This document shows, piece after piece, positions 19,421-64,000 of a stretch of DNA of 64,000 nucleotides. Origin of the DNA: Candidatus Aldehydirespirator sp. (GTDB lineage: Bacteria; Actinomycetota; Acidimicrobiia; Acidimicrobiales; Aldehydirespiratoraceae). A program made the position numbers and the translations under genes. A model generated the notes under the pieces. The model was not told the origin of the DNA. It made no database searches and was given only the letters and a program-made list of their open reading frames with translations. Where the stretch lies: NCBI GenBank assembly GCA_965203635.1, contig OZ241903.1, positions 3,047,547 to 3,111,546 on the forward strand, written 5' to 3'. Numbering within the stretch: the stretch's first letter is position 1; each line of letters opens with the position of its first letter.

Positions 19421-19996
19421 CTAGTTGTTCTGGGGCCAGGTGGCGGTTAGGCGTTCCCAGCAGTCTTGGAGGCTCTGGGGGAGGACTCTCACATCGGCTA
19501 TGGCGGTCATGAAGTTGGTGTCGGAGCGCCAGCGGGGAAGCACGTGGATGTGGACGTGGTCGAACACGCTGGGGCCGGCGCCCTCGCCCAGGTTGACGCC
19601 TACGTTCACCCCGTCGGGCGAGAAGGCGGCCTTCACCGCGGTGACGGCGTCGTGGACGGTGTCCCACAGCTCGCGGCGCTCGTCCGGGTCGAGGCCCTCA
19701 AGGTCGGGAACAGCCCGGTAGGGCAGGATCAGCAGGTGGCCCGTGGAGTACGGGTAGCGGTTCAGGATGGCGAACACCCGCTCGCCGCGGTGCACGATGT
19801 GTGTCTTGTCGTCGGGCAGGCCCGAGTTGAGGATGGCCTCGAAGAGGCTCTGGCCGTGCCCGCCGTCGGGGCCGGTGCCGGCTCCGGGGACGGTGCCCGG
19901 AATGGTGCCGGAAGAGTCCGCGATCCCGGCGGCGGCCGCCTCCCGGTCCTCCATCATGGCGGGGATCCGCCAGCCGGCCCAGAGGCGCTCGACCAT
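19421..19996 (-). CDS. HIT-family nucleotide hydrolase/phosphorylase (Ap4A-phosphorylase-like)
   Basis: Histidine triad HVHIHVLPRW. The N-terminal ERLWAGWRIPAM motif and the position directly downstream of thrS match the arrangement I recall for mycobacterial Rv2613c/thrS. Confidence 0.85.
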   Translation of the reverse strand: MVERLWAGWRIPAMMEDREAAAAGIADSSGTIPGTVPGAGTGPDGGHGQSLFEAILNSGLPDDKTHIVHRGERVFAILNRYPYSTGHLLILPYRAVPDLEGLDPDERRELWDTVHDAVTAVKAAFSPDGVNVGVNLGEGAGPSVFDHVHIHVLPRWRSDTNFMTAIADVRVLPQSLQDCWERLTATWPQNN

Positions 19997-22347: not shown

Positions 22348-24618
22348 ATGTGGTCGGTTCTTGGGAGCGCTCTGGGCCTGCGGCGGATCCGGTGTGTGCA
22401 CACTCGGGGTGCCAGCCGGGGAGCGTCGCGGCTGCTCATCACGGCGGTGACGGCTGCCGCGGTCGTGTCGCTGCTGGCGGCCGCGGCCGCGGCTGAGGAG
22501 ATCAAGCCCGGCGACGACAACAAGGCCGAGCCCAGCTATGGGACCGGCCAGAGCGCGTGCGTGGGCGACGCCGCCAACGATCAGGGCTTCGTCGACGTGC
22601 CCGCCGAGCACACCTTCAAGGTTGCCATCAACTGCTTCGCGTACTACGGCATCACCTCAGGCACCGGCGACGGCACCACGTTCTCGCCGGACGCGGCCGT
22701 CACGGGCGCCCAGATGGCCACGTTCATCGGGCGGGCGGCGCGATTGGTCGGCGTCGATCCCGACGACGTCATCGGCAGCTTCGACACGGCCGCCGCGACA
22801 GTGACCCGCGCCGAGGTGGCCGTGCTGGTCTCGCGGCTGCTGGTTGCGCTGACCGACAAGGAATCCGATCCCAACCTCGAGATAGGCGACTTCGGCGCGG
22901 TGACGATCAACGGGAAGCTGCCCGAGGACTTCTTCAGGGACTCGCGCGACACCCAGCCCCTGCCGATCGACAGCGCGGTCAGCGCGCTGTACGAGCTGGG
23001 CGTCACCAAGGGGCGGCCCGACGGCGGCTTCGCGCCGAACGACGCCGCGACCCGCGCCGACGCGGCCGCGTTGATCACCGGGGCCCTGACCCACAGCCGG
23101 GTCCGCCCCGAGGGGGTCTCGATCCAGCAGGGCATGGGCGACGAGATAGTGATCTCGGTCCGCGACTCGGACTTCGCGCCGGTGGAGGGAGTGGCGATCG
23201 ACGCGTTCAGCGTCTCGACGAGACTCCTCAGCACCACCGCGTTCAAGTCCGACGGCACCTGCGGGACCGTCAAGGTGCCCACCGGCGGCGACGCGGGCTC
23301 GAGATGCAGGATCAGCACCCTCGACCCGGTCACGAACTTCGACGGCGAAGTCGTGCTGCGGGTGGACATCGACGAGCGGGGCGGCACCACTGTGTGGGCC
23401 TGGACCGGCGAGGAGGACGACCGTGTGACCGGCGGCGGGGCGGGACTCGCCCGGATCGACCTCACCGACATCGGCCCGGTCGTCGCGGAGGGCGCCAAGG
23501 TGACCAACGACATCCCCGGGGGGGCGGGCCAGGCCCGTTTCGGCGACACCGTCACCGTCACTGTCCAGCTCACCGGCGCGGGCGACAAGGACGCCCCGCG
23601 TCCCCGCGACGGCGCCTCGTACCGGGTGACGATCTCTGCGGCGGCACCCCCCGGATCGTCCGCCCCGCCGATCGGCTACATACTGCGCGACGACAGCACC
23701 GACACTGCCCGGTTCACCAGCTCCGGCCATTCCACCGATAGACCCACATTCTGGAGCGGAGAAGTGGACAGCACCGGCAAGCTCACATTCACCATCACCG
23801 CTCTGGATCCCCGCTTCGAGGAACCCGACCCCGACGTGCAGATCACCTACCGGGTGGAGAACGGGACCGACAACACCTTGGACCCCCCGACGGGCGCAAC
23901 ATGCACGCTGGATGAAGCGGCCTCCTCGACGATGACGAGGTGTCCCGTCTTCTCCGACGAGGAATCGATGCCCGGCAAGGTTGAGGTCAAGACCTCGGGC
24001 ACGTACCTGTCAGCCAGCGCCTCCACACCCAACACAGCCATAATCACGGCGACCGACCAGTACGGAAAGCCACTGAGCGGTCACAGGGTGATGTTGACGT
24101 CCTCCCTGGGGGAGGGGGTTGAGATCCCCGACCGGCCCGCGTGCACGGGAGGGAACGGTCAAGCCCGGATCACATACCTCTACAAGTCGAATAATGCAGC
24201 GACGGAGACGCTGACGGCCCGGCTCGTGGGCGAGGACGTCGGGGACGGCACGACCCCTAGATGTCGTAATTCACCGCCCTCGGATCCGGACGTGGATGCG
24301 GACACCGCGACCGTCTTCTGGTTGACGGCGCCTGGGCAGCGCGGCCAGGGGAATGTGGGGCTGTCCAGAGTGGATGAGAACATCGTCATCGTGGAGACCG
24401 ATTCCGGGCCGGTCCAGATCTCCTACGATGCGCGGGACTACCTCTATTGGGGAGGCAGTCCGGTCACCCTGGCGATTTTCCAGGATCAGCTAGCCGGGTG
24501 GGAGAAGGACATCGCCGACGGGGAAGCGAACGAAGAAGTCCCCCGCTTCAGGCTCGCGTGGGAACACCTCGGCAGTGCCAGCGGGATCACCGAACTGAAG
24601 CTCACGCGCGCTAGTTAG
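22348..24618 (+). CDS. secreted SLH-domain cell-surface protein with Ig-like domains
   Basis: 756 aa. Signal-like N-terminus (LLITAVTAAAVVSLLAAAAAAEE). Two S-layer-homology-type segments (FVDVPAEHTFKVAINCFAYYGITSGTGDGTTFSPDAAVTGAQMATFIGRAA; IDSAVSALYELGVTKGRPDGGFAPNDAATRADAAALI). A later Big-like segment reads ITATDQYGKPLSGHRVMLTSS. Confidence 0.8.
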   Translation: MWSVLGSALGLRRIRCVHTRGASRGASRLLITAVTAAAVVSLLAAAAAAEEIKPGDDNKAEPSYGTGQSACVGDAANDQGFVDVPAEHTFKVAINCFAYYGITSGTGDGTTFSPDAAVTGAQMATFIGRAARLVGVDPDDVIGSFDTAAATVTRAEVAVLVSRLLVALTDKESDPNLEIGDFGAVTINGKLPEDFFRDSRDTQPLPIDSAVSALYELGVTKGRPDGGFAPNDAATRADAAALITGALTHSRVRPEGVSIQQGMGDEIVISVRDSDFAPVEGVAIDAFSVSTRLLSTTAFKSDGTCGTVKVPTGGDAGSRCRISTLDPVTNFDGEVVLRVDIDERGGTTVWAWTGEEDDRVTGGGAGLARIDLTDIGPVVAEGAKVTNDIPGGAGQARFGDTVTVTVQLTGAGDKDAPRPRDGASYRVTISAAAPPGSSAPPIGYILRDDSTDTARFTSSGHSTDRPTFWSGEVDSTGKLTFTITALDPRFEEPDPDVQITYRVENGTDNTLDPPTGATCTLDEAASSTMTRCPVFSDEESMPGKVEVKTSGTYLSASASTPNTAIITATDQYGKPLSGHRVMLTSSLGEGVEIPDRPACTGGNGQARITYLYKSNNAATETLTARLVGEDVGDGTTPRCRNSPPSDPDVDADTATVFWLTAPGQRGQGNVGLSRVDENIVIVETDSGPVQISYDARDYLYWGGSPVTLAIFQDQLAGWEKDIADGEANEEVPRFRLAWEHLGSASGITELKLTRAS

Positions 24619-24706: not shown

Positions 24707-26227
24707 TCAGGCCGAGATCTCGACGGTCACCGCCTTGATGATGGTGATCAGGGTCGGCTGGAACAATTTGGTGAAGTCGACGACGCCGACCGCGGCGATG
24801 ATGATCACCCCGCCCGCGGGGACGTTGACCGGCATGTCCAGGCGGAACGACCCGTTGTCGGCCACGTTCACCGCGACGAGGGTCTTGTTGATGTTGTCCC
24901 GCGCGCTGTCTCGCAGGAGGTCGTCGGACGCGTACACGGTCGACAGGTCCTGGGAGCCCTCGTCGGCGGTCGATATGCCGGCTTGGGCGTGCAGGCCGTC
25001 GGAGTCGCACTGACGGAAGAACTCCAGCTCTCCCTGGCTGGGCACGAGGCAGCTGGTCACGAGCAGCACGGGATTGTTGGCGACGCCGGCCGGGGTGGTG
25101 TGCAGGCCGGTCCAGTTCGTGCCGACCAACGTGAACGTCTGCGGTCCGGCCCCGTCGACCGAGGTGACCGGTGCCGACGTGTCTCCCTGGAGGTAGACGG
25201 TGAGCGTGGGCCTCCAGGGGTCGACGGTGACGGTTACCTCGATGGTGTCGTCGGTCTGCGCGGGCTGCTCGGTGTTGCCGTCGGCGTCCTTGCCGTCGGA
25301 GACCTCGACGGTGAGCGTGTAGGTGGCCTTGGTGGCGTAGTCCAGCGCGGCCCTCGTCTGGATCTGGCCCGTGAAGAGGTCGATCGCGAAGGACGCGGCG
25401 TCGGCGCCGGAGATGCTGTAGATCAGCAGGTCGCCGTCGGCATCGCCGGCCGTCACCGGGTCGCCCACCGGGTCGCCCGTCGATGCGTTCTCGACGACGC
25501 GGCGGGCCGCCGAGTCGCCCTCATCGAAGGCCGGCGCCTGGTTGACCGCCGGATCGCCGCCGTCGCCGGTACCGCCGCTGTCGTCGGTGCCGCCGCTGTC
25601 GTCGCCATCGGGCTCGGGCACCTCAACCTCCGGCTCAGGCTCAGGCTCGGCCACTTCCGGCTCAGGCTCGGGCTCGGTCACTTCCGGCTCAGGCTCGGGC
25701 TCAGCTACCTCGGGCTCCGGGGCAGGATCAGGCTCGACCACCTCAGGCTCCGGCTCGACCACCTCAGGCTCCGGCTCCGGCTCAGCCACCTCAGGCTCAG
25801 CTACCTCGGTCTCCGGCTCCGGCTCAGCCACCTCAGGCTCAGCTACCTCGGTCTCCGGCTCCGGCTCAGCCACCTCAGGCTCCGGCTCAGCCACCTCAGG
25901 CTCGGGCTCCAGCTCCGGCTCGGCCGCCTCAGGCTCAGGCTCGGGCTCGGGCTCCGGCTCGACCGCCTCAGGCTCGGGCTCCGGCTCGGCCGCCTCAGGC
26001 TCGGGGTCCGGCTCGGGGACCTCGGGCTCGGACTCCGCTTCGGGCTCGACCGCCTCTGGATCGGGCTGCTGGGCCGTCGTCTGCCCTCCGCCGGCCGGGT
26101 CCGGCGAGTCGCCGCCGCATGCTGCCGCGATCAACGCCAGCGCAAGGAACACGGCCAGTAGGCCGCGCCGCGGCAGCGGTGCCGCCGGGCGGGCCCCGGG
26201 GCGACGGAGCGTGTCTACGGTGTTCAT
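24707..26227 (-). CDS. lipoprotein with PE-rich linker, one cadherin-like domain and a Cys-pair C-terminal domain paralogous to part of the giant protein
   Basis: ATG 26227 follows AGGAGG. Signal plus lipobox [17 protein letters not shown]. About 160 aa of (E-P-E-P-E-V/A) repeats follow. The cadherin-like segment is [71 protein letters not shown]. The C-terminal ~170 aa matches giant-protein residues encoded at about 35.9-36.4 kb. Confidence 0.8.
25590..26060 (-). repeat. coding low-complexity tandem repeats (EPEPEV-type), including an exact 42-bp tandem duplication at 25781..25864
   Basis: GGCTCNGGCTC periodicity is visible directly. The unit ctcagccacctcaggctcagctacctcggtctccggctccgg occurs twice in tandem, followed by an 18-nt partial third copy (to 25882). 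Confidence 0.9.
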
Positions 26228-26286
26228 GTCATTCCTCCTGGGAGACGGTTCTCGGATGGTCGAGCAGGGCCGTGCCGGTAGGGCTG

Positions 26287-29200
26287 CTAGGGCTCGGCGG
26301 GGATCACCACCAGAACGGCGGACTCGATCTGGGCGGAGTCGCCGACCAGGATGGCCACACCGGCGGCGGGAGGACCGCCTGCGGGCACGGTGTAGGCCAG
26401 GGTGGCGGAGATGGTGCCGTCGCTGTTCGGGGTGATGGACGTCCGGTTGATGATGTCGCAGTCGGTCGGCGAGATGGAGTCCGCGCCGGCGGCGGGGACT
26501 GTGCAGAACAGCGCGAGGAGCCCCAGCGTCCAGTTGCCGCCGGTCAGCTGGAACTCGTGGCGGCTGCCCGCCGCGGCGTCGGCGCGGTCGACGGACTCGG
26601 GCTCCACCTCGAACCAGGGCCCGGTGCGGATCACGGGCTCGGTCCCGGGCTCCGCGGCGGCGATCACTGCGGCCTCGGCGGTCTCGATCTGGGCGGGGTC
26701 GCCCACCGCGACGGCCACGCCGTAGGCGGGCGGGCCTGACGGCGGGACGGTGTAGGTCAGCGTGGCGGTGATGGTGCCGTCGCTGCCGGGGGTGATGGGC
26801 GTGAGGTTGGAGATGTCGCAGTCGGTCTGGCCCATCACCTCGATGCCGCCGGCGGGGATCGCGCAGAACAGGCCGAACAAGTCGAGGCTCCAGTTCCCGC
26901 CGGTCACGGTGAACTCGTACTTGCCGCCGGGGGCCGCCGCGGCCCGGTCGACCGACTTGGGCGTCACCGTGATCCACGGCCCCGACGGCGGCTCGGGCGC
27001 GATCACCACCGCCGCCGCGGACTCGGCGCCGTCTGAGCTGGTGAATCTGATGGCCACCCCGCCCTCGGGGGGTCCCCCAGAGGGCACGGTGTAGGTCATG
27101 GTGGCGGTGAACCCGCCTTCGGCCACGGTCACGTCCACGCCGCCGGGGCCGTCGCAGCCGGCGTCGGCGATGGCGTCGATGCCGTCTTCGGTCAGTTCGC
27201 AGAACACGCCCGACAGCGACGCCGCGCTCCAGTTGGCGCCGGTCACGGTGAACTCGACGGTCTGGCGGGCGCGCAGCGTGTCGCGGTCCACCTCAGGCGA
27301 CGCCGAGACGGCAGGCCGCGGGGCTGCCTCGATCACCACCGCGGCGGCGGATTCCTCGCCGTCGCTGCCGGTGACCAGCACAGCAACGCCCGACTCGGGC
27401 AGACCCCCGGCGGGCACCGTGTAGGACACGCGGACCGCGAAGGCGCCCGCCGACGGCGCCGCGGTTACTTCGCCGCCGGTGCAGGACCCCGCGTTGACCG
27501 AGCCGAGCCCGCCGGCGGGGGTCTCACACAACACCAGCGACACCGACTCGCTGGCCCAGTTGGTGCCCGACACCACCACGAGCTGCCGGTCGCCGGGCGC
27601 CAGCGTGCTCCGGTCGATCGGCGCGGGCGACACCGCCGCCACCGACACGGTCGGGGCTGCGAACGCCCGCACGATCGGTGTCGCGATGAGCGGCTTGAGG
27701 GTCTTCGGCAGCAGCGATTCCATTACCTCGACGGTCACCGCACCGTCGGCGCTGCTGGCCCGCAGAGCGACGCCGTAGGGCGGGACGCCTTCCTCGGGCG
27801 CCCGGTAGAGGACCCCCACCGAGAACGCTCCGCCAGCATCGGGGGTCGCCGAGCCGACGGGCTCGTCGCAGCCGTCGGCGCCGATCTCGCCCACGCCGCC
27901 GGCCCCCATCTCGCAGAACGCCACCGACACCGGCTCGGGGGTCCAGCCCGAGCCCGACACCGTGAAAGTCCACCACTTGCGGGTGGCGCGCTCGCTGCGC
28001 TCCACCCCAGGGGGCGACACCGAGATCACCGGCTGAACCGCGGGCGGGATCGCCACGACGGTCGCGGCCTCGGCCCCCAGCGACGCGGCCGTCTCGACCC
28101 CGAGCGTCCCGGCCGCCTCGGCCACGTCAGCGGGAACACCCAGCGCGGACACGGTCACGCCGTCGGCGGGCACGCCGCCCGAGGGCACCACATAGGCCAT
28201 CCGCACGGTGAAGCTGCCGTCCGACGGCGCGACCGGCACGGCCGCCCCCCAGTCGCAGCCGTCGCCGCCGGAGCTGTCCTCGCCGGAGTCCTCGCCGCCG
28301 GAGCCGTCCTCGCCGCCGGGGTCCTCGCCGCTGCTTGCGGGAGTCGCGCAGAACGCCAACAACACCGACTCGCTGGTCCAGTGAGTGCCCGACACCATGA
28401 ACACCTGCCGGTCGCCGGGCGCCAGCATGCTCCGGTCCACCGTGGAGGGCGACACCGGCGAGATCGACAGCGCAGGCGCCGGAGCGGGCGGTGACGCCTG
28501 AGCGTCGGGATCGAACACGACCACGGCCACACCGCCGCGGGGGACCCCGTCCTCGGGCACCTCGTGCATCACCGACACCGAGGCGTTGCCGCCGGTCACC
28601 GACTCGGTCACCGAGGTCACCAGGTCGCAGTCGGCCGCGGTTATCTCCTCCACCCCTCCCGGCGGGATGCGGCACACCGCCACCACCACGGTCTCGGTGT
28701 TCAAGCCCGACACCGACACCTCGATGTCCTGCTCCTCGCCGGGCTTGAGATCGGTCCGGTCCACCTCCGGCGTCGGCACCCACACCTCCGGCGGCTGCAC
28801 CTCGGCGCCGGGCACCGCGGAGATGACCAGCTGGAAGGCGATCTCGGTCTCGGTCGGGTCGCCGAACCCGATGACCACGCCCCGCTCGGGGATGCCGTCG
28901 GCGGGCACCGTGTAGGTGATGGAGATCGTGAACGTGCCGCCCGGGCCGAGCTCGAGCACCTGCACGGTGTAGGTGATGTCGCAGTCGGACCGGCTGGCCG
29001 CGTCGATGCCCCCGGGCGGGATCACGCAGAACGCCCCGAACGGCGCCAGCGTCCAGCCCGAGCCTCGCACCGTGAACGTCTTCTTCTCGCCCACGCTCAG
29101 CGAGTTGCGGTCCACGAACCCCGGCGACACCGTGATCTGCGGCCCGCCCTCGGGCGGAGCGGCCGGGATCACCACCGCCACCGCCGACTCGTCGCCGGCG

Positions 29201-30990
29201 GGGTCGCTGTCGCTGACCCTGATGGCCACCCCGCCGGCCGGCACGCCCTCGGGGGGAACGGTGTAGGTCATCGACTCGCCGCTGAAGCTGCCGCCGGTGG
29301 GCGTTATCGTCACCCTGCCGTCGGCGGAGCACTCGGCGTCGGTGATCGAGCCGGCGCCGGCCGGGGGCACGGTGCAGAACTCCGCCAACAGTTCCGCCGC
29401 GGTCCAGCTCGACCCCGACACGGTGAACGGCTGCGTGTCGCCCGCGTCGAGCGTGTCGCGGCCCACCGTCGCCGGCGTCACCTCGATGGTGGCCCCGCCG
29501 GCTGGGATCACCACCGCGGTGTCGGTCTCGGTGCCGTCGCTGTTGGCGACCCTGATGGCCACCCCCCGGGCGGGGACGCCCTCCGCGGGCACGGGGTACC
29601 TCATGTCGACGTTGAAGCTGCCTCCGCTGACAGTGATGGTCTGCTGGTTGGCGGTGTCGCAGTCGCTGTCCTCGATAGCCCCCGCGCCGGCGGCGGGGAT
29701 CGTGCAGAACACTGCTGTCAGCGACCCGTCCGTCCAGTTCTGGCCGGTCACGCGGAAGGCCTGGGCGCTGCCGGGGCTCAGCGTGTCGCGGTCGACCGGC
29801 ACCACCGTTATGAGCGGCTTGGTCTCGGCCGGCACCGCCAGGGCCACCGCCGACTCGAGGGTGTGGGGCTGGGCGAGGGTGAGGTCGTTGACGTCGCGTC
29901 TGACCCTGATGGCCAGGCCCCGGTCGGGGACGCCGCCGTCGGGAACGGCGTAGGTCATGGTGACGCCGCTGAACGTGCCCAGGGGCGAGCCTGAGGCGGG
30001 CACCGTGATGGTGACCCTGCCGTCGGCGGAGCAGTCGGCGGCGGTGATCGCTTCAAGGCCGCCCGAGCCGACGGTGCAGAACTCGCCGTACACCGATCCC
30101 ATGGACCAGACCGTCGTGGACGGCCCCGCCGTCCAGTTCGCGCCCGACACGGTGAAGGTGTGGGTGCCGCCTGCGCTCAGCGAGTCCCGGTCGGCGGGGG
30201 TCACCGACACCGACGGCGCCGTGCCCGGCCCGATGATCGAGACCGCCTGACCCTGGATGCGGGGCTGGTCGCCGGCCGAGATGAACACGCCGTAGGGCGG
30301 CAGGCCCCCGGTCGGCACGGTGTAGGTCATCGTGCGCTGCCACCTGCCGTTGGCCACCGCCTGGTTGATGGTGCCGGAGCTCTCGCCGATAGACGCGATG
30401 CGGCAGAAGTTGGCGGCGTTGCCCAGGCCGATCTGTCTCAGCTCGCCTTGGGGCGACCGGCAGAACAGCACCGCGACAATCGGCACCGTCGAGATCCACT
30501 TCGAGCTGGTGAAGTTGAACGTGACCGTGTCGCCGGGGTTCAGCGCGGTGAGGTCCTCGGACTGCGGCGCGGCCACCGCGGTGCCGCCCTTCACCACCGC
30601 CGTCACCGTGAACTCGATGACCGCCGGCGCGTGGATGGCCAGGATCGTGGCCGACTCGGTGGGGGCCTGGCTGCCGTCGGAGTTGCTGACCCTGATGGCC
30701 ACGCCGTCGGCGGGGACGCCGGAGGCGGGCGTCCGGTAGGTCATCGCCACCGACGAGAACGAGCCGCCCGACGCGGGGATCGCCACCCGGCGGGTGTTGT
30801 CGCAGTCGCTGTTGGTGATCGCGCCCACGCCTCCGGAGGGCACGGCGCAGAACACGCCGTACAGCGACGTCGATGTCCAGTCCTGGCCCGACACCGCGAA
30901 GTTGGCGGTGTTGCCGGGGTACAGCCCGCCCCCGTCCCTGGTGGGGTGGCTGACGTTCGCCTCGGTGGTCCACGGGGCGATCGAGATCGA
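26287..30990 (-). repeat. C-terminal array of 13 Cys-pair domains (~105-125 aa each)
   Basis: The recurrent pattern is V.P..VDR..L..G....F.V.G..W......FC..P.GG...I...DCD ... Y.VP..G.P..GVAI.V, counted 13 times by eye between [10 protein letters not shown] and the C-terminus VVIPAEP. Confidence 0.8.
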
Positions 30991-33900
30991 CGCGTCGACC
31001 TCGGTGACGTTGATGGTGACGGTGACGCTGGCGTCGACGGTGTTGTCGGTCCCGCCGGACGCGTTCTTGCCGTCGGACACGTTGACCGTGACCTCGTAGC
31101 TGGACTTGGTGCTGGAGTCGAGCGCGGCCTTGGTCTTGATCTGGCCGCCGGAGGCGCCGGACTCGAAGTCGAAGCTGGCGGCGTCGGTGCCGGTCATGGT
31201 GTAGGTGAGCGTGTCGTTGTCGGCGTCGGTGGCCGCCAGCGGGGCGCCCACGTTGCTGCCCGCGGAGGCGGTCTCGGCCACGCTGCGCGTCGCGGTCGCC
31301 GACGGGAACGCCGGGACCCGGTTGGCGCCGGTGATGGTGATGGTGACGGTGATGGTGTCGTCGGTGTCGGTGTCGGCCTCCCCGGACGAGTCCTTGCTGT
31401 CGCGCACCGTCACGGTCACCTCGTAGGACTGCTGGGTTCCCGCCGGCAGGTTCGAGGTTCCGACGCTGATCTGGCCGCTGGAGCTGACCGTGAACTTCGA
31501 GGCGTCGGTCCCGCCGATCCCGAACGTGAGCGTGTCGCCGGTGTCGGGGTGGGTCACTCCCAGCGCCGCGCCCACCGCGCTGTTGGCGGTGGAGCCGGCC
31601 ACGGTGATGCTGCGGGTCGTGGTGGCGCCCTCGCTGAACACCGGGTCGTCGTTGACGGCGTTGATGGTGATCGACACCGTCGCGGCCGCGCTGTCGAGGC
31701 TGCCGTCGTTCACCTTGTAGGTGAAGCTGTCCGAGCCGTTGGCGTTGGCGTTGGGGGTGTACTCGATCACCGTGCTGCTGCCGGACTTGAGCGCGGCGGT
31801 GCCCTTGGTGGGGTTGGTCACGATCGACGCGGTCAGGCTGTCGTTCTCGGGGTCGGTGTCGTTGGAGGTCACCGCGATCTCCGTCGTGCCGGAGTCCTCG
31901 TTGACGGTCACCGAGTCGGCGACCGCGGTGGGGGCCTCGTTCACGTCGGTCACGTTGATGGTCACCGAGATCTCGTCGTCGATGGTGGTGTCGGCGTTGC
32001 CGGCCGCGTTCTTGCTGTCGGTGACCTTCACCGTCACCGAGTAGCTCGACTTGGTCTCGCGGTCCAACGACGTCTTGGTCTGGATCTGGCCGGTGGTCCC
32101 CGAGATGGTGAACGACGAGGCGTCGGTGCCGGTCATCGTGTAGGTGAGCGTGTCGCTGCCGTCGGCGTCGGTGGCGGCCACCGGGCTGCCCACGTTGACG
32201 ACCGCGGCGGAGTTCTCGGCCACGCTGCGGGTCGTGGACGTGCCGTCGTCGAAGGTGGGCTGGCTGTTGGTGTCGCTGACGGTGATGGTGACGGTGATGG
32301 TGTCGTCGGTGGTGGTGTCGGCGGTCCCCGAAGCGTTCTTGCTGTCGCGCACCGTCACCGTCACCGTGTAGGACTGCTGGGTCGCCACCGGCAGATTCGT
32401 CGTTCCGACGCTGATCTGGCCGCTGGAGCTCACCACGAACTTCGAGCCGTCGGTCCCGCCGATCGCGAACGTCAACGACTCGGTCTCGTCGGAGGGATGG
32501 GTCACCCCCAGCGCCGAGCCCACCTTGCTGTTCGCGACGGAGCCCGCCACCGTCACGCTGCGCTTCGCGGTGGTGCCGTCGCTGAACTCGGGGTCGTCGT
32601 TCAGCGCGGTGATCGTGATCGTCAACGTGCCGCTGTCGGTGCCGCCCGACCCGTCGGACACCGTGTACACGATGGTGTCCTCGCCGTTGGCGTTGGCCTT
32701 GGGGGTGTACTCGATCACCTTGCTGTCGGTCGCCTTGATCGCGGCGGTTCCCTTGGTCGGCGCGGTCGTGATCGCGGAGACCGACAGCGTCGTGCTGTCG
32801 ATGTCGGTGTCGTTGGTGATCACGTTGATCTCCACCTTGGCCGAGTCCTCGTTGATCGTCTTGGTGTCGTCGGTGGCCACCGGCGGGTCGTTCACCGCGT
32901 TGATCGTGATCGACACCGTGGCCGCGCTGCTGGTGATGGAGCCGTCGGACACCGTGTAGGTGAAGCTGTCAGAGCCGTTGGCGTTGGCATTCGGGGTGTA
33001 CTCGATCACGCCGGCGTCGCCGGTCTTGACCGCCGCGGTGCCCTTGGTGGGGCTGGTCACGATCGACGCGGTCAGGGTGTCGCCCTCGGGGTCGGTGTCG
33101 TTGGCGGTCACGTCGATCTCGACCTTGCCGGAGTCCTCGTTGATGGTCTTGGAGTCGTTGACCGCGGTGGGGCCCTCGTTCACGTTGGTCACGTTGATCG
33201 TCACCGAGATCTCGTCGTCGATGGCGGTGTCGGCGCTGCCGGTCGCGGTCTTCTTGTCGGTGACCTTCACCGTCACCGAGTAGCTCGACTTGGCCTCGCG
33301 GTTCAACGACGTCTTGGTCTTGATCTGGCCCGTGGTCGCCACGATCGTGAAGCTCGACTTGTCGGTGCCGTCGAGGGTGTACGTCAACGCGTCGTTGTCG
33401 GCGTCGCTGGCGGCCACCGCCGCGCCCACGTTGACGACCGCGGCGGCGTTCTCGGCCACGCTGCGCGTCGTAGAGGTGCCGTCGTCGAAGGTCGGCTTGC
33501 GGTTGCTGTCGCTGATGGTGATGGTCACCGTGATGGTGTCGTCGGTGGTGGTGTCGGCGGTCCCCGACGCGTTCTTGCTGTCCCGCACCGTCACCGTCAC
33601 CGTGTAGGACTGCTGGGTCGCCACCGGCAGGTTCGTGGTTCCGACGCTGATCTGGCCGCTGGAGCTCACCACGAACTTCGAGCCGTCGGTCCCGCCGATC
33701 GCGAACGTCAGCGTGTCGCCGGTGTCGGGATGGGTCACCCCCAGCGCCGCGCCCACCGCGCTGTTCGCGACGGCACCCGCCAGCGTGATGCTGCGCGTCG
33801 CGGTCGCGCCCTCGCTGAACACCGGGTCGTCGTTGACCGCGGTGATAGTGATCGTCAAGGTGCCGCTGGCGGTGTCGGTCCCGTCGGACACCGTGTACAC

Positions 33901-36900
33901 GATCCTGTCCTCGCCGTTGGCGTTGGCGTTCGGGGTGTACTCGATCACCGTGGTGCTGCCGTTCTTGATCGCGGCGGTGCCCTTGGTCGGGCTGGTCGTG
34001 ATCGCGGTGACCGACAGCGTGTCGCCCTCCACGTCGGTGTCGTTGGCGATCACGTTGATCTCGACCTTGGCCGAGTCCTCGTTGATGGTCTTGGTGTCGG
34101 CGACCCCCACCGGCGCGTCGTTCACCGCGTTGATCGTGATCGACACCGTCACCGTGTCGCTGTCGACGGTGCCGTCGTTCACCTTGTAGGTGAAGCTGTC
34201 CGAGCCGTTGGCGTTGGCGTTGGGCGTGTACTCGATCACGCCGGCGTCGCCGGACTTCACCGCCGCGGTGCCCTTGGTGGGGTTGGTCACGATCGACGCG
34301 GTCAGGGTGTCGCCGTCGGCGTCGGTGTCGTTGGCGGTCACGTCGATCTCGACCTTGCCGGAGTCCTCGTTGATCGTCTTGGAGTCGGCGACCGCCACCG
34401 GCTTGTCGTTGATCCCGGTGATCGTGATCGTCAGAGTGCCGCTGCCGGTGGCCGACCCGTCGGAGACCGTGTACACGATCTTGTCCTTGCCGAAGGCGTC
34501 AGCCTTGGGGGTGTACTCGATCACCGTGGTGCTGCCGTTCTTGATCGCGGCGGTGCCCTTGGTCGGCGCGGTCGTGATCGCGGTGACCGACAGCGTGTCA
34601 CCCTCCACGTCGGTGTCGTTGGCGATCACATTGACCTCTGTCTTACCGGAGTCCTCGTTGATGGTCTTGGTGTCGGCGACCCCCACCGGCGCGTCGTTCA
34701 CCGCGTTGATGGTGATCGACACCGTCACCGCAGTGCTGTCGACGGTGCCGTCGTTCACCTTGTAGGTGAAGCTGTCGGAGCCGTTGGCGTTGGCGTTGGG
34801 GGTGTACTCGATCACGCCGGCGTCGCCGGTCTTCACCGCCGCGGTGCCCTTGGTGGGGTTGGTCACGATCGACGCGGTCAGGTCGTCGTTGTCGGCGTCG
34901 GTGTCGTTGGCGGTGACGTCGATCTCGACTTTGCCGGAGTCCTCGTTGATCGTCTTGGAGTCGGCGACCGCCACCGGCTTGTCGTTGATCCCGGTGATGG
35001 TGATGGTGACGGTGGCCGCCGCGCTCTGGAGGGTGCCGTCGGAGGCCTTGTAGGTGAAGCTGTCCTTGCCGAAGGCGTTGGCGTTGGGGGTGTACTCGAT
35101 CACCGTGGTGCTGCCGGACTTGAGCGCGGCGGTGCCCTTGGTGGGGTTGGTCGCGATCACCGCGGACAGGGTGTCGTCCTCGGGGTCGGTGTCGTTGGCG
35201 ATGACGTTGATCTCGGTCTTGCCGGAGTCCTCGTTGATGGTCTTGGCGTCGTTGGTGGCGGTGGGGGCCTCGTTGACGTCGGTCACGTTGATGGTGACCG
35301 CGATGGTGTCGTCGGTGGTGGTGTCGGTGGCGCCGGCCGCGTTCTTGCCGTCGGTGACCTTCACCGTGACCGAGTAGCTGTCCTTGGTCTCGTGGTTCAG
35401 CGCGGCGCTGGTCCTGATCTGGCCCGACGAGGTGTCGATGGTGAAGCTCGAGGCGTCGGTGCCGGTCATCGAGTAGGTGAGCGTGTCGCCGCTGTCGGAG
35501 TCCGACGCGGCCACCGGGCTGCCCACGTTGGTGGACGTCGGCGAGTTCTCGGCCACGCTGCGGGTCGCCGAGGTGCCGTCGTCGAAGGTCGGCTTGCGGT
35601 TGGAGGCCTTGGTGCTGGCCGTCACCGAGCCCTCGTTGACGACGACCTGGCTGTTGCCGGTCCCCTCCCGGCGCTGCAGCTCGAAGTCGTAGCTGGTGTT
35701 CTCGTCGAGGCTGGACACGGTGTGGGCGGGCGCTCCCGAGGTCCAGCCCGTGTTGGCCCAGCTCGACCATTCGCTGTCGGCGCTCTTCTTGTGGCGCACC
35801 CAGTAGGAGCAGGCCGGAGCGGTGGAGGTGCAGAAGCTGGCGTTGGTCCACGTCAGCTTCACCGAGCTGGTCGTCGTCGCGGCGCTGAGCCCGGCTATCG
35901 AGTCCACCGCGACCTTGTGTTTGGTGGTGGACGTCAGATCGACCGTCCCCGCCAGGAGCTTGTTGATGTCGAAGGGGCCGGTCACGGCCGTGATGATCGT
36001 GCCGCCGGCTGGGACCGCGATCGTCATGTCCTGGGTGAAGGTCCCGTCGGTTGCGACGGTGAACGTCGGCCAGGACCGGCTGATCAGGTTGAGCGCGGTC
36101 AGAGCCTCCGATGCCGTCCCATACATGGTCGTCAGGTCCTGCGAGCCCTCCCTCGCGGTGACCCCGATCACTTCGGCCAGCCCGTCGGAGTCGCAGTCCG
36201 TGAGCAGGTTCAGGTCCGCGTCGCCGGCCGGCAAGAAACAGGCGGTCAGCAGCACTCCGAGGTCGCCCACGACGCTGCTCGTCCAGCCGGTGCCCTTGAC
36301 GGTGAACGTGTAGGAGCCGGACTTCGTGAGCGAGGTCACCTCGGTGCTGGTGTCCGACTTCAGGAACACCGTGATCGCAGGCCCGGTCGTGATGTTGATG
36401 GTGACGGTGATGGTGTCGTCGGTGGTGGGGGTCTGCTCGGGGTCGCCGTCGGCGTCTATGCCGTCTGTGACGGTGACGGTGACGGTGTAGGACTGCTGGG
36501 TCTCGACGGGCAGGGCGTTCGACCCGACGCTGATCTGGCCGCTGGAGCTCACCACGAACTTCGAGCCGTCGGTGCCGCCGATGGTGTAGGTCAGCGTCTC
36601 GGACTCGTTGTCGGGGTGGTCCACCGCGAGGGCGTCGCCCACCTTCGCGTTCGCCGTCGCGGCCGCCGGGGTGATGCTGCGGGTCGTGGTGCGGACCTCG
36701 TTGGCGACGGTGCCCTCGTCGAAGGCGGGGTTGTCGTTGACGGCGGTGATGGTGATCGTCACCGTGGCTGCGCTGCTGTTGTGGGTGCCGTCGTTCACCT
36801 TGTAGGTGAAACTGTCCGAGCCGTTGGCGTTGGCATTCGGGGTGTACTCGATCACCGTGCTGCTGCCGGACTTGAGCGCCGCGGTGCCCTTGGTGGGGTT

Positions 36901-39900
36901 GGTCACGATCGACGCGGTCAGGCTGGCGCTCTCGGGGTCGGTGTCGTTGGAGGTCACCGCGATCTCGGTCGTGGCGGAGTCCTCGTTGATGGTCACCGAG
37001 TCATCGGTTGCGGTGGGGGCCTCGTTCACGTCGGTCACGTTGATCGTCACCGAGATCTCGTCGTCGATGGCGGTGTCGGCGTTGCCGGATGCGTTCTTGC
37101 TGTCGGTGACCTTCACCGTCACCGAATAGCTCGACTTGGTCTCGCGGTTCAAAGACGTCTTGGTCTTGATCTGGCCCGTGGTCCCCACGATCGTGAACGA
37201 CGCCGCGTCGGTGCCGGTCATCGTGTAGGTGAGGGTGTCGCTGCTGTCGGCGTCGGTGGCGGCCACCGGGGCGCCGACGTTGGTGACCGCCGCGGCGTTC
37301 TCAGCCACGCTGCGCGTCGTGGAGTCTCCGTCGTCGAAGGTGGGCTTGCTGTTGGCGTCGCTGATGGTGATCGTCACCGTGATGGTGTCGTCTGTGGTGG
37401 TGTCGGCGGTCCCCGAGGAGTTCTTGCTGTCCCTGACGGTGACGGTCACGGTGTAGGACTGCTGGGTCGACACCGGCAGATTCGAGGTCCCGACGCTGAT
37501 CTGGCCGCTGTTGCTCACCACGAACTTCGAGCCGTCGGTCCCGCCGATCGTGAACGTCAACGCCTCCGTCTCATCTGAGGGATGGGTCACCCCCAGCGGC
37601 GAGCCCACGTTGCTGTTCGCGGTGGAGCCCGCCAGCGTGACGCTGCGCTTCGCGGTGTCGCCGTCACTGAACACCGGATCGTCGTTCACCGCGGTGATCG
37701 TGACCGTCAAGGTGCCGCTGGCGGTGTCGGTCCCGTCAGAGACCGTGTACACCACCGTGTCTTCGCCGTTGGCGTTGGCGTTGGGGGTGTACTCGATCAC
37801 CTTGTTGCCGGTCTTGATGGCGGCGGTGCCCTTGGTCGGCGCGGTCGTGATCGCTGTGACCGTCAGCGAGTCACCCTCCACGTCGGTGTCGTTGGCCACC
37901 ACGTTGATCTCGGTCTTGGCGGAGTCCTCGACGATGGTCACCGCGTCGTCCACCGCCACCGGCGCATCGTTCACCGCGTTGATCGTGATCGACACCGTCG
38001 CCGTGCCGCTGTCGTGGGTGCCGTCGTTCACCTTGTAGGTGAAACTGTCCGAGCCGTTGACGTTGGCGTTCGGGGTGTACTCGATCACCGTGCTGCTGCC
38101 GGACTTGAGCGCCGCGGTGCCCTTGGTCGGGTTGGTCACGATCGACGCGGTCAGGGTGCCGCCCTCGGGGTCGGTGTCGTTGGAGGTGACGTTGATCTCG
38201 GTCTTGCCGGCGTCCTCGTTGATGGTCACCGAGTCGTTGACCGCGGTGGGGGCCTCGTTCACGTCGGTGACGTTGATCGTGACTGAGATCTCGTCGTCGA
38301 TGGTGGTGTCCGCGTTGCCGGATGCGTTCTTGCTGTCGGTGACCTTCACCGTCACCGAATAGCTGGCTTTGGTCTCGCGGTCCAGAGACGTCTTGGTCTT
38401 GATCTGGCCCGTGGTCCCCACGATCGTGAAGCTCGCCGCGTCGGTGCCGGTCATCGTGTAGGTCAACGTGTCGCTGCTGTCGGCGTCGGTGGCGGCCACC
38501 GGGGCGCCGACGTTGGTGACCGCCGCGGAGTTCTCGGCCACCTCCCGCGTCGCGGAGGTTCCGTCGTCGAAGGTGGGCTTGCTGTTGGCGTCGCTGATGG
38601 TGATCGTCACCGTGATGGTGTCGTCTGTGGTGGTGTCGGCGGTCCCCGAGGAGTTCTTGCTGTCCCTGACGGTGACGGTCACGGTGTAGGACTGCTGGGT
38701 CGACACCGGCAGATTCGAGGTCCCGACGCTGATCTGGCCGCTGTTGCTCACCACGAACTTCGAGCCGTCGGTCCCGCCGATCGTGAACGTCAACGCCTCC
38801 GTCTCATCTGAGGGATGGGTCACCCCCAGCGGCGAGCCCACGTTGCTGTTCGCGGTGGAGCCCGCCAGCGTGACGCTGCGCTTCGCGGTGTCGCCGTCAC
38901 TGAACACCGGATCGTCGTTCACCGCGGTGATCGTGACCGTCAAGGTGCCGCTGGCGGTGTCGGTCCCGTCAGAGACCGTGTACACCACCGTGTCTTCGCC
39001 GTTGGCGTTGGCGTTGGGGGTGTACTCGATCACCTTGCTGTCGGTCGCCTTGACCGTGGCGGTGCCCTTGGTCGGCGCGGTCGTGATCGCGGTGACCGTC
39101 AGCGAGTCACCCTCCACGTCGGTGTCGTTGGCCACCACGTTGATCTCGGTCTTGGCCGAGTCCTCGACGATCGTCTTGGCGTCGTCCACCGCCACCGGCG
39201 CATCGTTCACCGCGTTGATGGTGATCGACACCGTCGCCGTGCCGCTGTCGTGGGTGCCGTCAGACACCTTGTAGGTGAAGCTGTCCGAGCCGTTGGCGTT
39301 GGCGTTCGGGGTGTACTCGATCACCGTGCTGCTGCCGGACTTGAGCGCCGCGGTGCCCTTGGTCGGGTTGGTCACGATCGACGCGGTCAGGGTGCCGCCC
39401 TCGGGGTCGGTGTCGTTGGAGGTGACGTTGATCTCGGTCTTGCCGGCGTCCTCGTTGATGGTCACCGAGTCGTTGACCGCGGTGGGGGCCTCGTTCACGT
39501 CGGTGACGTTGATCGTGACTGAGATCTCGTCGTCGATGGTGGTGTCCGCGTTGCCGGATGCGTTCTTGCTGTCGGTGACCTTCACCGTCACCGAATAGCT
39601 GGCTTTGGTCTCACGGTCCAGAGACGTCTTGGTCTTGATCTGGCCCGTCGTCCCCACAATCGTGAACGACGCCGCGTCGGTGCCGGTCATCGTGTAGGTC
39701 AACGTGTCGCTGCTGTCGGCGTCGGTGGCGGCCACCGGGGCGCCGACGTTGACGACCGCCGCGGAGTTCTCGGCCACCTCCCGCGTCGCGGAGGTTCCGT
39801 CGTCGAAGGTGGGCTTGCTGTTGGCGTCGCTGATGGTGATCGTCACCGTGATGGTGTCGTCTGTGGTGGTGTCGGCGGTCCCCGAGGAGTTCTTGCTGTC

Positions 39901-42900
39901 CCTGACGGTGACGGTCACGGTGTAGGACTGCTGGGTCGACACCGGCAGATTCGAGGTCCCGACGCTGATCTGGCCGGTGGAGCTCACCACGAACTTCGAG
40001 CCGTCGGTCCCGCCGATCGCGAACGTCAACGCCTCCGTCTCATCTGAGGGATGGGTCACCCCCAGCGGCGAGCCCACGTTGCTGTTCGCGGTGGAGCCCG
40101 CCAGCGTGACGCTGCGCTTCGCGGTGTCGCCGTCACTGAACACCGGATCGTCGTTCACCGCGGTGATCGTGACCGTCAAGGTGCCGCTGGCGGTGCCCCC
40201 CGAACCGTCAGACACCGTGTACACGATCGTGTCTTCGCCGTTGGCGTTGGCGTTGGGGGTGTACTCGATCACCTTGCTGTCGGTCGCCTTGACCGTGGCG
40301 GTGCCCTTGGTCGGCGCGGTCGTGATCGCCGACACCGACAAAGACGTGCTGTCGATGTCGGTGTCGTTGGCGATCACATTGATCTCGACTTTGGCGGAGT
40401 CCTCGATGATCGTCTTGGCGTCGTCGACCGCGACCGGGTCGTCGTTGACGGCATTAATGGTGATCGACACCGTCGCCGTGCCGCTGTCGTGGGTGCCGTC
40501 GTTCACCTTGTAGGTGAAACTGTCAGACCCGTTGACGTTCGCGTTGGGGGTGTACTCGATCACCGTCGCGTCGCCCGTCTTGACCGCCGCGGTGCCCTTG
40601 GTCGGGTTGGTCACGATCGACGCGGTCAGGGTGCCGCTCTCGGGGTCGGTGTCGTTGGAGGTCACCGCGATCTCGGTCTTGCCGGAGTCCTCGTCGATGG
40701 TCACCGAATCATCGGTTGCAGTCGGGGCCTCGTTCACGTCGGTGACGTTGATCGTCACCGCGATCTCATCATCGATGGTGGTGTCGGCGTTGCCGGATGC
40801 GTTCTTGCTGTCGGTGACCTTCACCGTCACCGAATAGCTGGCTTTGGACTCGCGGTCCAAAGACGTCCTGGTCTTGATCTGGCCGGTGGTCCCCACGATC
40901 GTGAAGCTCGACTTGTCGGTGCCGTCGAGGGTGTAGGTCAACGTGTCGCTGCTGTCGGCGTCGGTGGCGGCCACCGGGGCGCCGACGTTGACGACCGCCG
41001 CGGAGTTCTCAGCCACCTCCCGCGTGGCGGAGGTTCCGTCGTCGAAAGTGGGCTTGCTGTTGGCGTCGCTGATGGTGATCGTCACCGTGATGGTGTCATC
41101 GGTGGTGGCCTCGGTCTCGTCACCGGTGCTGTCCTTGCCGTCAGACACCGTCACCGTCACTGTGTAGGTCTGCTGGGTCGACACCGGCAGATCAGTGGTC
41201 CCGACGCTGATCTGGCCGCTGTTGCTCACCACGAACTTCGAGCCGTCGGTCCCGCCGATCCCGAACGTCAACGCCTCGGTCTCGTCGGTGGGGTGGTCCA
41301 CCGCCAGCACCGCGCCCACGGCGCTGTTCATCGTGGAGCCCGCCAACGTCACGCTGCGCGTCGTGGAGCGGACCCCGTCGCTAACGGTCCCCTCGCTGAA
41401 GGCAGGGTCGTCGTTCACCGCGGTGATCGTGACCGTCAAGGTGCCGCTGGCGGTGCCCCCCGACCCGTCAGACACCGTGTACACCACCGTGTCCTCGCCG
41501 ACCGCATCGGCGTTGGGGGTGTACTCGATCACCTTGCTGTCGGTCGCCTTGACCGCGGCGGTGCCCTTGGTGGGGGCGGTCGTGATCGCCGACACCGACA
41601 GCGTCGTGCTGTCGATGTCGGTGTCGTTGGTGATCACGTTGATCTCGACTTTGGCGGAGTCCTCGACGATGGTCTTGGCGTCGTCGACCGCGACCGGGTC
41701 GTCGTTGACGGCATTAATGGTGATCGACACCGTCGCCGTGCCGCTGTCGTGGGTGCCGTCGTTCACTTTGTAGGTGAAACTGTCAGAGCCGTTGACGTTG
41801 GCGTTCGGGGTGTACTCGATCACCGTCGCGTCGCCCGACTTGACCGCCGCGGTGCCCTTGGTCGGGTTGGTCACGATCGACGCGGTCAGGGTGCCGCTCT
41901 CGGGGTCGGTGTCGTTGGAGGTCACCGCGATCTCGGTCTTGCCGGAGTCCTCGTTGATGGTCACCGAGTCGTTGACCGCGGTGGGGGCCTCGTTCACGTC
42001 GGTGACGTTGATCGTGACTGAGATCTCATCGTCGATGGTGGTGTCCGCGTTGCCGGATGCGTTCTTGCTGTCGGTGACCTTCACCGTCACCGAATAGCTG
42101 GCTTTGGTCTCGCGGTCCAAAGACGTCCTGGTCTTGATCTGGCCCGTCGTCCCCACAATCGTGAACGACGCCGCGTCGGTGCCCGCCAGCGTGTATGTGA
42201 GCGTGTCTCCGTTGTCGGCATCGGTGGCGGCCACCGGGGCGCCGACGTTGACGACCGCCGCGGAGTTCTCGGCCACCTCCCGCGTCGCGGAGTCGCCGTC
42301 GTCGAAGGTGGGCTTGCTGTTGGCGTCGCTGATCGTGATCGTCACCGTGATGGTGTCATCGGTGGTGGCCTCGGTCTCGTCACCGGAGCTGTCCTTGCCG
42401 TCAGACACCGTCACCGTGACCTCATAGGACTGCTGGGCCAACACCGGCAAGTCGGTGGACCCGACGCTGATCTGGCCGCTGGAGCTCACCACGAACTTCG
42501 AGCCGTCGGTCCCGCCGATCCCGAACGTCAACGCCTCGGTCTCGTCGGTGGGGTGGTCCACCGCCAGCACCGCGCCCACGGCGCTGTTCATCGTGGAGCC
42601 CGCCAACGTCACGCTGCGCGTCGTGGAGCGGACCCCGTCGCTGACGGTCCCCTCGCTGAAGGCAGGGTCGTCGTTGACCGCGGTGATCGTGATCGTCAAG
42701 GTGCCGCTGTCGGTGTCGGTCCCGTCAGAGACCGTGTACACCACCGTGTCTTCGCCGACCGCGTCGGCGTTGGGGGTGTACTCGATCACCTTGCTGTCGG
42801 TCGCCTTGATGGTGGCGGTGCCCTTGGTGGGGGCGGTCGTGATCGCGGAGACCGACAGCGAGTCACCCTCCACGTCGGTGTCGTTGGCGACCACGTTGAT

Positions 42901-63900: not shown

Positions 63901-64000
63901 GACCGTGTACACGATGGTGTCCTCGCCGACCGCGTCGGCGTTGGGGGTGTACTCGATCACCTTGTTGCCGGCCTTGATCGCGGCGGTGCCCTTGGTGGGG
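26287..64000 (-). CDS. giant repetitive cell-surface protein (cadherin-like, tandem-95/VCBS-type Ig-like, FN3, Calx-beta-like and Cys-pair domains); C-terminal >12,557 aa, N-terminus outside the window
   Basis: One uninterrupted minus-strand frame runs from the right edge to TAG at 26287. The frame is still open upstream of the ORF-track GTG at 63960 (…[14 protein letters not shown]). Cadherin motifs recur (VAEN, DADxGD, LDRE, DVNEAP). Tandem-95-type units recur (INEDxxKTEINVxxNDTDPEGxxL...[22 protein letters not shown]...AVNDAP). The lipoprotein gene follows after a 59-nt gap. Confidence 0.9.
31000..35590 (-). repeat. divergent repeat block III (irregular units, including five consecutive T95 domains)
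   Basis: These are cadherin/T95 units with altered stoichiometry (1 Cad + 5 T95 + Cad; Cad + 2 T95 + Cad; Cad + 1 T95 + Cad + Cad). A 576-nt sub-period is visible at 34190/34766. Confidence 0.8.
36400..49850 (-). repeat. super-repeat block II (about 11 units of ~1.25 kb)
   Basis: Same four-domain unit. For example, antisense ORFs start at 38039, 39275, 40514, 41774, 43031, 44285, 45536, 46787, 48044 and 49304. Confidence 0.9.
52300..64000 (-). repeat. super-repeat block I (about 9.4 units of ~1.25 kb)
   Basis: Each unit encodes cadherin-A, T95-1, T95-2 and cadherin-B (~417 aa). The periodicity also shows as identical antisense ORFs in the track every 1236-1260 nt. Confidence 0.9.

Follow-up and report, generated by a model that had tools for sequence, protein, structure and literature searches.

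A terminal array of paired-cysteine domains in a giant cadherin-type gene

The 64,000 bp stretch of DNA analysed here (the window) is from Candidatus Aldehydirespirator sp., contig OZ241903.1, positions 3,047,547 to 3,111,546 of the forward strand. It carries a giant cadherin-repeat open reading frame (ORF) on the minus strand at 26287..63960, with 12,557 codons in the window and the stop codon at 26287-26289. No in-frame stop is found up to the window end, and since the frame is open to base 64000, the N-terminus lies outside the window, more than 38 kb upstream. The last 1,569 amino acids (aa) of the protein, aa 10989-12557 (26290..30996, minus strand), form an array of 13 immunoglobulin (Ig)-like domains, termed units here, each of which has one pair of cysteines. 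Sequence profiles support a remote homology between these units and neocarzinostatin (NCS), the enediyne apoprotein.

The 13 units lie in tandem and have envelopes of 115-139 aa, with about 115 aa being typical. This number of C-terminal copies had been proposed in an initial annotation of the window and is borne out by hidden Markov model (HMM) comparisons. Each unit was scored against an HMM of the other 12, which removes circularity, and gave 51-129 bits, versus at most 7.3 bits for reversed or shuffled copies. Pairwise identity among the units is 21-58%. The derived consensus, PxxxVxPxxVDRxxLxxGxxxxFxVxGxxWTxxxxxxxFCxxPxGGxxxIxxxxCDxxxxVxITxxxGxFxxxMTYTVPxGGxPxxGVAIxV, agrees with the pattern first described. 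Every unit has exactly two cysteines; their spacing is 15 residues except in units 2 and 8, where it is 19 and 31, respectively. A spacing of 12-16 residues, as originally given, thus holds for 11 units but not for units 2 and 8.

All units are on the minus strand. Unit 1 (30634..30996) scores 131.6 bits with the HMM and 111.7 bits in the leave-one-out comparison. Unit 2 (30226..30615) is the most divergent, with a leave-one-out score of 50.9 bits. Unit 3 (29854..30246), which has an extra insert in the B-C region, was delimited by HMM and leave-one-out scores, as were units 5 (29161..29520), 6 (28816..29172), 7 (28462..28821), 9 (27703..28062), 10 (27325..27675), 11 (26995..27342) and 13 (26296..26646). 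Units 4 (29497..29847) and 12 (26656..27009) were delimited by HMM and also modelled. Unit 8 (28090..28506), delimited by HMM, carries an acidic Gly/Glu/Asp/Ser low-complexity insertion in its Cys-Cys loop, and Tandem Repeats Finder (TRF) detects a period of 15 in this insert at 28262-28331. The protein ends with the residues ...VVIPAEP*.

At the DNA level there are no repeats in the region 26287-31480, unlike in the cadherin body. Independent public assemblies of sponge and marine metagenomes cover the array colinearly and at single-copy depth, and one public contig of 3,371 nt spans 25874-29233. An assembly artefact is therefore excluded. The window sequence is also present in sponge and marine metagenome runs. 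No expression evidence was found, as among the public runs sought none was clearly RNA.

The body of the giant ORF has a different organization. A Pfam scan gives matches to Big_9, Cadherin_4 and Cadherin_5, together with Cadherin, at E = 0 across it, and the body contains approximately 100 Big_9/Cadherin_4/Cadherin_5 domains. The cadherin body at 31484-63162 (minus strand) consists of about 25 super-repeats of approximately 1,251 nt (417 aa) each, with 80-96% nucleotide identity. Over this segment the k-mer depth in public runs rises 10-50-fold, which makes the copy number and the assembly of the cadherin body uncertain.

The super-repeat is broken at two places only, and both house internal Cys-pair units. 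At the first, the order is cadherin, fn3, a Calx-beta-like domain and three units. This internal triad (50221..51327, minus strand; aa 4212-4580) parallels the C-terminal units 1-3 one for one. At the second, the order is cadherin, a variant unit and fn3. The variant is a divergent unit with an insertion of about 35 aa (35989..36411, minus strand; aa 9184-9324), flanked by the cadherin and fn3 domains. The four extra copies noted in the initial annotation are accounted for by these, and another copy is found in a downstream lipoprotein gene. In total, the giant protein has 38 cysteines, every one in a pair. Two extra Cys pairs with a spacing of 7 residues, aa 3916/3923 (52192-52215) and aa 9377/9384 (35809-35832), both on the minus strand, belong to the pair of fn3 domains flanking the internal Cys-pair units; their motif differs from the putative disulfide motif of the units. 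Plus-strand ORFs over the giant gene (e.g. 30160..37578; up to 2,472 aa) were rejected as likely shadow ORFs, the gene being repetitive and GC-rich.

Searches with family models

The units are not detected by the models of known families. On the whole tail, Pfam and NCBIfam give scattered marginal matches only, and PF00960 and NF040680, the two models of enediyne apoproteins, give no match at E <= 1. In scans of single units, PF00960 is found in one of the 17 units at E 0.0075 and NF040680 in none of the 17, so the units do not reach a curated-threshold match to either family. TIG appears at E 0.77 on the tail and at 0.04 in one of the 17 units, and Big_9 at 0.034 in one of the 17. No fn3 family match was found within the units by the Pfam scan, and no IPT/TIG, Big_x or fn3 family HMM match covers a unit. 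The PGS-Ig domain gives 19.8 bits versus a cutoff of 45, on a fragment of a single unit, and this does not recur. Two families exceed their cutoffs, CooC_C (29.1 bits versus 29) and LSDAT_prok (26.9 bits versus 25.4), but both matches involve only a unit/linker fragment and do not recur across units; they are considered spurious.

Sequence and profile searches of the PDB with the tail and with the 17-unit alignment yielded noise only, and no NCS. The initial remark that the unit was not recognised as a standard adhesin domain is consistent with these results: no Pfam, NCBIfam or PDB sequence model covers the unit, and no confident match of a named domain over the whole unit is found in Pfam/NCBIfam.

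Remote homology to neocarzinostatin

Evidence for a relationship to NCS comes from a two-step chain of sequence profiles. In the first step, the unit profile was compared with 1.84 billion representative proteins and gave only 86 matches at E <= 1e-3. Many of the matched proteins are of approximately 160-210 aa and have a signal peptide, one Cys-pair domain, an acidic low-complexity linker, an LAxTG/LPxTG motif, a hydrophobic span and a basic tail. These small proteins are sortase substrates. A search with the small-family profile finds more than 110 clusters, which come from metagenome-assembled genomes (MAGs) of Acidimicrobiales, Acidimicrobiia or Actinomycetota. Where the proteins are named, the names are 'hypothetical protein' or 'LPXTG cell wall anchor domain-containing protein', and the clusters of ten relatives are all unnamed. 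Precomputed annotation assigns PF00960 to none of 113 small-family clusters, and the sole Pfam match is the LPXTG anchor PF00746, on three. Comparison of the units with the small family by hhalign gives a probability of 99.5% and E 4e-22.

In the second step, the small family is linked to the enediyne apoproteins. NF040680, the 'enediyne antibiotic chromoprotein' model, is matched by 33 of 46 small-family members (best E 1.1e-20); the one member with a displayed score has 40 bits, far under the 86-bit equivalog cut-off. PF00960 is matched by nine of the 46 (best E 1.1e-11), and TIG by at most five, with E >= 0.023. Across the 46 members the two cysteines are the sole invariant columns. Three multidomain relatives that the unit profile also picks up exceed the 25-bit gathering score of PF00960. 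These are P0009, which has three tandem units (unit profile E 2.4e-18; PF00960 45 bits), the 3,592 aa protein P0002 (8e-61; 87 bits) and P0011 (2e-16; 30 bits).

A set of 12 bona fide apoproteins was gathered with an NCS query that was verified to be identical to 1nco_A at 113 of 113 residues. The small family aligns with these true apoproteins by hhalign at E 1.3e-5 and a probability of 81%, with its cysteines on C37 and C47 of NCS. A second-iteration HMM gives the true apoproteins 8-21 bits, all in one register. The small-family profile against PDB sequences reaches macromomycin at no better than E 0.51. When the units themselves are compared with the 12-member NCS alignment, E is 0.19, which is not significant, yet the register is the same; comparison with the single NCS sequence is also not significant. 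The homology is therefore transitive.

The register is consistent throughout. In every profile alignment the two invariant cysteines fall on Cys37 and Cys47 of NCS and the next strands on NCS strands V and VI (strand numbering of PMC2694159). The full-length alignment to the apoprotein P0100 shows 18 residues in the apoproteins, corresponding to NCS Phe76-Ala92, that the surface-domain family does not have; they are inserted after 'VPxEG' and ahead of the following strand. The unit sequence GVAIRV is thereby equivalent to CQVGLS of NCS, and the terminal GVAISF of NCS to the last strand of the unit. It follows that the resemblance to NCS first noticed pointed to the right family, but that the motif match on which it was based is off by one strand. 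By sequence, a remote homology of the units to NCS is thus supported through the two-step chain and its consistent register.

Predicted fold

AlphaFold2 was run on units 4 and 12 with the 17-unit alignment. The two models have predicted local distance difference test (pLDDT) values of 95.3 and 93.9, respectively, and an identical seven-strand all-beta topology. Both show a short helical turn within the Cys-Cys loop. The beta-sandwich suggested at the outset is thus recovered, in the form of seven-stranded Ig-like sandwiches.

A Foldseek search of the PDB returned Ig-like sandwiches only. With unit 4, the top match is neocarzinostatin, 2cbq_B, which is also the sole match at E <= 1e-3 (E 3.6e-4); the TM scores are 0.57-0.62 for chains A and B. 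With unit 12, the top 50 matches do not include NCS, and the best are TRAP subunits, complement MG domains and Fabs, with E >= 8e-3. As the NCS match is not replicated with unit 12, the structural evidence is downgraded, and the case for homology is based on the sequence profiles. The predicted fold is an Ig-like sandwich to which NCS is nearest, but not robustly so.

These results bear on whether the NCS link could be spurious. The units might represent a lineage-specific, generic Ig-like domain of the E-set/TIG/Big type that has a Cys pair, and the matches might then stem from the Ala/Gly/Thr/Val-rich composition of actinobacterial proteins. The non-significant direct comparison of units with NCS, the unit 12 search without NCS and the weak matches to TIG, Big_9, CooC_C and PGS-Ig are what this explanation would predict. 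But each of the two steps in the chain reaches significance at the scale of the database, as illustrated by P0009, which is found among 1.84 billion proteins and scores nearly twice the PF00960 gathering score. In addition, the small family matches NF040680 broadly (E to 1e-20) and TIG rarely, and all alignments are in one register, with the cysteines on C37/C47 and strands on NCS V/VI. A spurious link is consequently viewed as very unlikely.

Comparison with enediyne apoproteins and with wall-anchored proteins

The enediyne apoproteins (NcsA, CagA of C-1027, macromomycin, actinoxanthin and kedarcidin; PF00960, NF040680) and the units are alike in that both are seven-stranded Ig-like barrels of secreted actinobacterial proteins. 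They share the strand register and the motifs TVxP...G, G.G..., C...C and ...DG.F....., and the Cys pair of the units aligns with Cys37-Cys47. There are also differences. The units do not have the hairpin subdomain of 17-18 residues, Phe76-Ala92, and the sequence VPxGGxPxxG stands there instead. This NCS insertion, with its two-stranded sheet, Phe78 and Cys88, is presumably one wall of the chromophore cleft. The second NCS disulfide, C88-C93, is missing as well, and the units contain no further cysteines. The Cys loop has 15 residues in the units versus 10 in NCS and is polar and acidic, and the VPxxG loop of the units is extra relative to the apoproteins. Moreover, 13-17 copies are present in a protein of >12,500 aa, whereas the apoproteins consist of one free domain of approximately 110 aa, and the HMMs of the apoprotein family do not recognise the units.

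NCS is built of a barrel plus a small two-stranded sheet, and its C37-C47 disulfide and Phe52 are directly beneath the enediyne ring (PMC2694159). The units do not conserve the cleft residues: the column equivalent to Phe52 is variable, and in unit 4, the one unit inspected by eye for the Leu45 position, the equivalent of Leu45 is polar or acidic. No enediyne polyketide synthase (PKS), and with it no enediyne biosynthetic cluster, was found in the 64-kb window; it has no ORF >900 aa other than the giant one, and therefore no gene of enediyne PKS size.

The small single-domain LPXTG/LAxTG wall proteins of Acidimicrobiia and Actinomycetota have a domain of the same family, with the two invariant cysteines, GxGW(T), VPxEG and an extracellular location in common with the units. 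In them a single domain is joined to an acidic linker and a sortase signal, whereas the giant protein has 13 tandem and four dispersed copies and no sortase signal. The array units also have a 5-residue insertion after VPxGG relative to the small proteins. The small anchored form and the giant form are carried by the same genomes. An example is P0204, a 189-aa single-domain paralogue of the LPXTG-anchored family; L002 is a giant orthologue, on OZ241894.1.

In the literature, the only mention found of an NCS-like domain on a surface protein concerns CwpG of Actinoplanes missouriensis (AMIS_57330). This protein is a substrate of a class E sortase and bears the InterPro annotation IPR002186 (neocarzinostatin-like). 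Its deletion has no phenotype and no ligand has been reported (PMC13251363). CwpG appears to be of the same kind as the small anchored single-domain proteins.

In the initial annotation it was suggested that the units might form a tandem ligand-binding array. Each unit would then have an NCS-type pocket over a disulfide floor, and the array would present a 13-17-valent surface to hydrophobic small molecules such as host or symbiont metabolites. Characterised members of the homologous family are small-molecule carriers only, the Cys pair of the putative floor disulfide is conserved, the units are conserved individually and are not homogenised, and the source is associated with sponges, which are rich in secondary metabolites. 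Several observations argue otherwise. The units do not have the insertion with Phe78 and Cys88, the Phe52-equivalent column is variable and, in unit 4, the residue equivalent to Leu45 is polar or acidic, the fold search with unit 12 yields generic Ig matches only, and the window is devoid of an enediyne PKS gene. CwpG, the only studied surface protein with the domain, offers neither a ligand nor a deletion phenotype. Without the hairpin and the second disulfide, with a variable Phe52 column and no enediyne PKS, an NCS-type carrier function is not supported, though a different, shallower binding face is conceivable, and the ligand-binding proposal is deemed quite improbable.

Other large proteins show related arrangements. 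P0002-type proteins (3,592 aa), in which a signal peptide is present and some 13 NCS-like domains are interleaved with fn3 domains, and P0011, which combines NCS-like domains with RTX repeats, resemble the giant protein in that they are large and secreted and have multiple copies with paired cysteines. Their domains differ in that they are closer to PF00960, passing its threshold, alternate with fn3 and are not in tandem, and have no accompanying cadherin body. Giant bacterial cadherin-like/Big_9 adhesins, which include the 'eukaryotic-like' cadherin proteins of sponge symbionts, have like body repeats and a sponge-associated source. In the literature on these adhesins, no report was found of NCS-like, putatively disulfide-bearing domains that form a terminal array free of homogenisation.

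Conservation of the array in related genomes

Close relatives of the tail are found in three Candidatus Aldehydirespirator sp. MAGs and in one Acidimicrobiaceae MAG (class Acidimicrobiia), with 70-78% identity. All four have exactly 13 terminal units and 26 cysteines. When units were compared one by one with those of the relative L005, same-numbered units were 44-86% identical versus 16-63% (mostly 20-50%) for other units. Given this positional orthology and the absence of DNA repeats, the array is old and fixed in position, and it escapes the concerted evolution by which the repeats of the cadherin body are kept alike.

The Cys-Cys loop is especially prone to indels, as seen in unit 8 of the window and in units 8-9 of the relatives (L002-L005). 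In the latter two units the Cys-Cys spacing spans 9-71 residues between species, and both cysteines are always retained. Retention of both despite such variation is a signature of a disulfide-closed surface loop. The family of the relatives, UBA11606, contains sponge-symbiotic lineages that are enriched in cadherin-domain proteins (PMC11706023).

Neighbouring genes

A predicted lipoprotein of 506 aa is encoded at 24707..26227 (minus strand). In addition to a signal peptide (...LIAAAC|GGDS), it contains a Pro/Glu-rich repeat linker about 170 aa long, with TRF arrays at 25626-26067, a cadherin domain, and a variant Cys-pair domain with a large insertion at 24710-25210. The lipoprotein is paralogous to aa 9107-9324 of the giant protein. 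It starts 59 nt past the stop codon of the giant gene, and no terminator or promoter motif is found in the gap; the two genes are probably co-transcribed. An exact-sequence look-up of the lipoprotein returned no record. Convergent with the lipoprotein gene is that of an envelope protein with SLH and Big_1 domains (22348..24618, plus strand). The SLH protein is kept at the same place in L002, L003 and L005, with 49-54% identity. The giant, lipoprotein and SLH genes are syntenic in three relatives, and the contig of the fourth ends within the lipoprotein gene.

Another proposal is that the array forms an adhesive tip, at the end of the fibre farthest from the cell. In that case the units would bind sponge matrix proteins, glycans or other cells with unit-specific specificities, and the cadherin body would be a spacer. 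Positional orthology with no homogenisation suggests that each unit is specialised, the protein appears to evolve fast, there is no anchor motif at the C-terminus, and the domain is also found alongside fn3 or RTX repeats in other large secreted proteins. Furthermore, cadherin-type proteins are enriched in sponge-symbiotic Actinobacteriota (PMC11706023). On the other hand, the domain adjoins the wall anchor in the small paralogues, and NWT, the Cys loop and VPxGGxPxxG, which the paralogues conserve, are features common to all units rather than unit-specific. A connection with the envelope is suggested by the neighbouring lipoprotein and SLH protein, whose genes are syntenic. An adhesive tip is considered unlikely, though less so than a ligand-binding array.

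Other neighbours in the window include the threonyl-tRNA synthetase gene (20062-22050, minus strand), which adjoins the surface-protein locus, and genes for a molybdopterin oxidoreductase and a type IV secretion system (T4SS) coupling protein. A 693-aa plus-strand ORF overlapping the threonyl-tRNA synthetase gene has no family match and is probably spurious. A low-GC island at approximately 12000-19500 has 53-59% GC versus about 70%. With this island are associated an AAA+DUF4143 ATPase gene (11082-12383) and genes for the TraG/VirD4-type T4SS coupling protein (12995-14509), a PD40-repeat/kinase-like protein (14547-16886) and a PP2C phosphatase (16995-18164). The island is probably an integrated mobile element.

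Proposed role of the array

The explanation that we favour, and hold to be reasonably probable, is that the array is a structural or anchoring rod of 13 disulfide-bearing, Ig-like relatives of NCS at the fibre end. The last 1,569 aa consist of 13 tandem seven-stranded Ig-like domains, each most probably with one disulfide closing off the loop that follows strand C. The units keep the barrel of NCS and, most probably, the disulfide equivalent to Cys37-Cys47, minus the hairpin subdomain and the second disulfide. They belong to a family that is centred in the Acidimicrobiia, is largely unannotated and has as its usual form a small secreted, sortase-anchored module displayed on the cell wall. In the giant cadherin-repeat protein this wall-displayed module appears to have been multiplied, with each copy individually fixed and kept in the same order in the four relatives. 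Most likely the array would serve as a position-specific structural or attachment segment, stable and hardened against oxidation, where the fibre ends. Possible docking partners are the neighbouring SLH protein and the lipoprotein, which is probably co-transcribed and has the same domain. A role as a small-molecule carrier is less likely.

A number of points weigh against the structural rod. The direct alignment of the units with NCS is not significant, and the unit 12 model did not retrieve NCS. We infer the disulfide from conservation and sequence alignment. At the C-terminus of the giant protein there is no LPXTG or other sorting motif and no signal of the RTX/type I secretion system (T1SS) kind. 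The tail has a dN/dS of 0.66-0.73 (NG86), an estimate that is unreliable because of extreme bias in third-position GC content (GC3). Finally, units that are individually conserved and not interchangeable are equally compatible with unit-specific binding functions.

A further scheme can be considered. Perhaps the enediyne carriers branched off, as a specialised lineage that acquired the hairpin insertion and second disulfide, from a far larger unannotated family of actinobacterial surface domains, and the units in sponge-associated Acidimicrobiia keep the ancestral-type domain with a shallow binding face above its disulfide. In 13-17 copies on the fibre and with unit-specific specificity, this face would serve multivalent capture of glycans or of small molecules of host or microbial origin. 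Little likelihood is attached to this scheme.

Significance

The fold superfamily is already known, and single-domain anchored forms are flagged by InterPro in at least one actinomycete. What is new is a divergent subfamily that current Pfam/NCBIfam models do not see, and a positionally conserved array of 13 units, with 17 copies in a cadherin-type protein of >12,500 aa and one more in a neighbouring gene. New as well is the implied evolutionary relation between surface domains and enediyne carriers. A Pfam/NCBIfam model built from the units would annotate hundreds of proteins now termed 'hypothetical' or 'LPXTG anchor'.

The carrier fold of NCS, functionally known so far from enediyne chromoproteins only, is tied by these findings to a broad, almost wholly unannotated family of wall-displayed domains in the Acidimicrobiia. 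A plausible evolutionary route is one in which the barrel and the first disulfide came earlier, and the hairpin and the second disulfide were added in the carriers. The locus also defines a surface module of three genes, in which the giant protein is accompanied by an SLH protein and by a lipoprotein that shares its Cys-pair domain. For the giant cadherin-type proteins that mark sponge symbionts, the units represent a new building block, whose copies are fixed in position while those of the cadherin body are homogenised.

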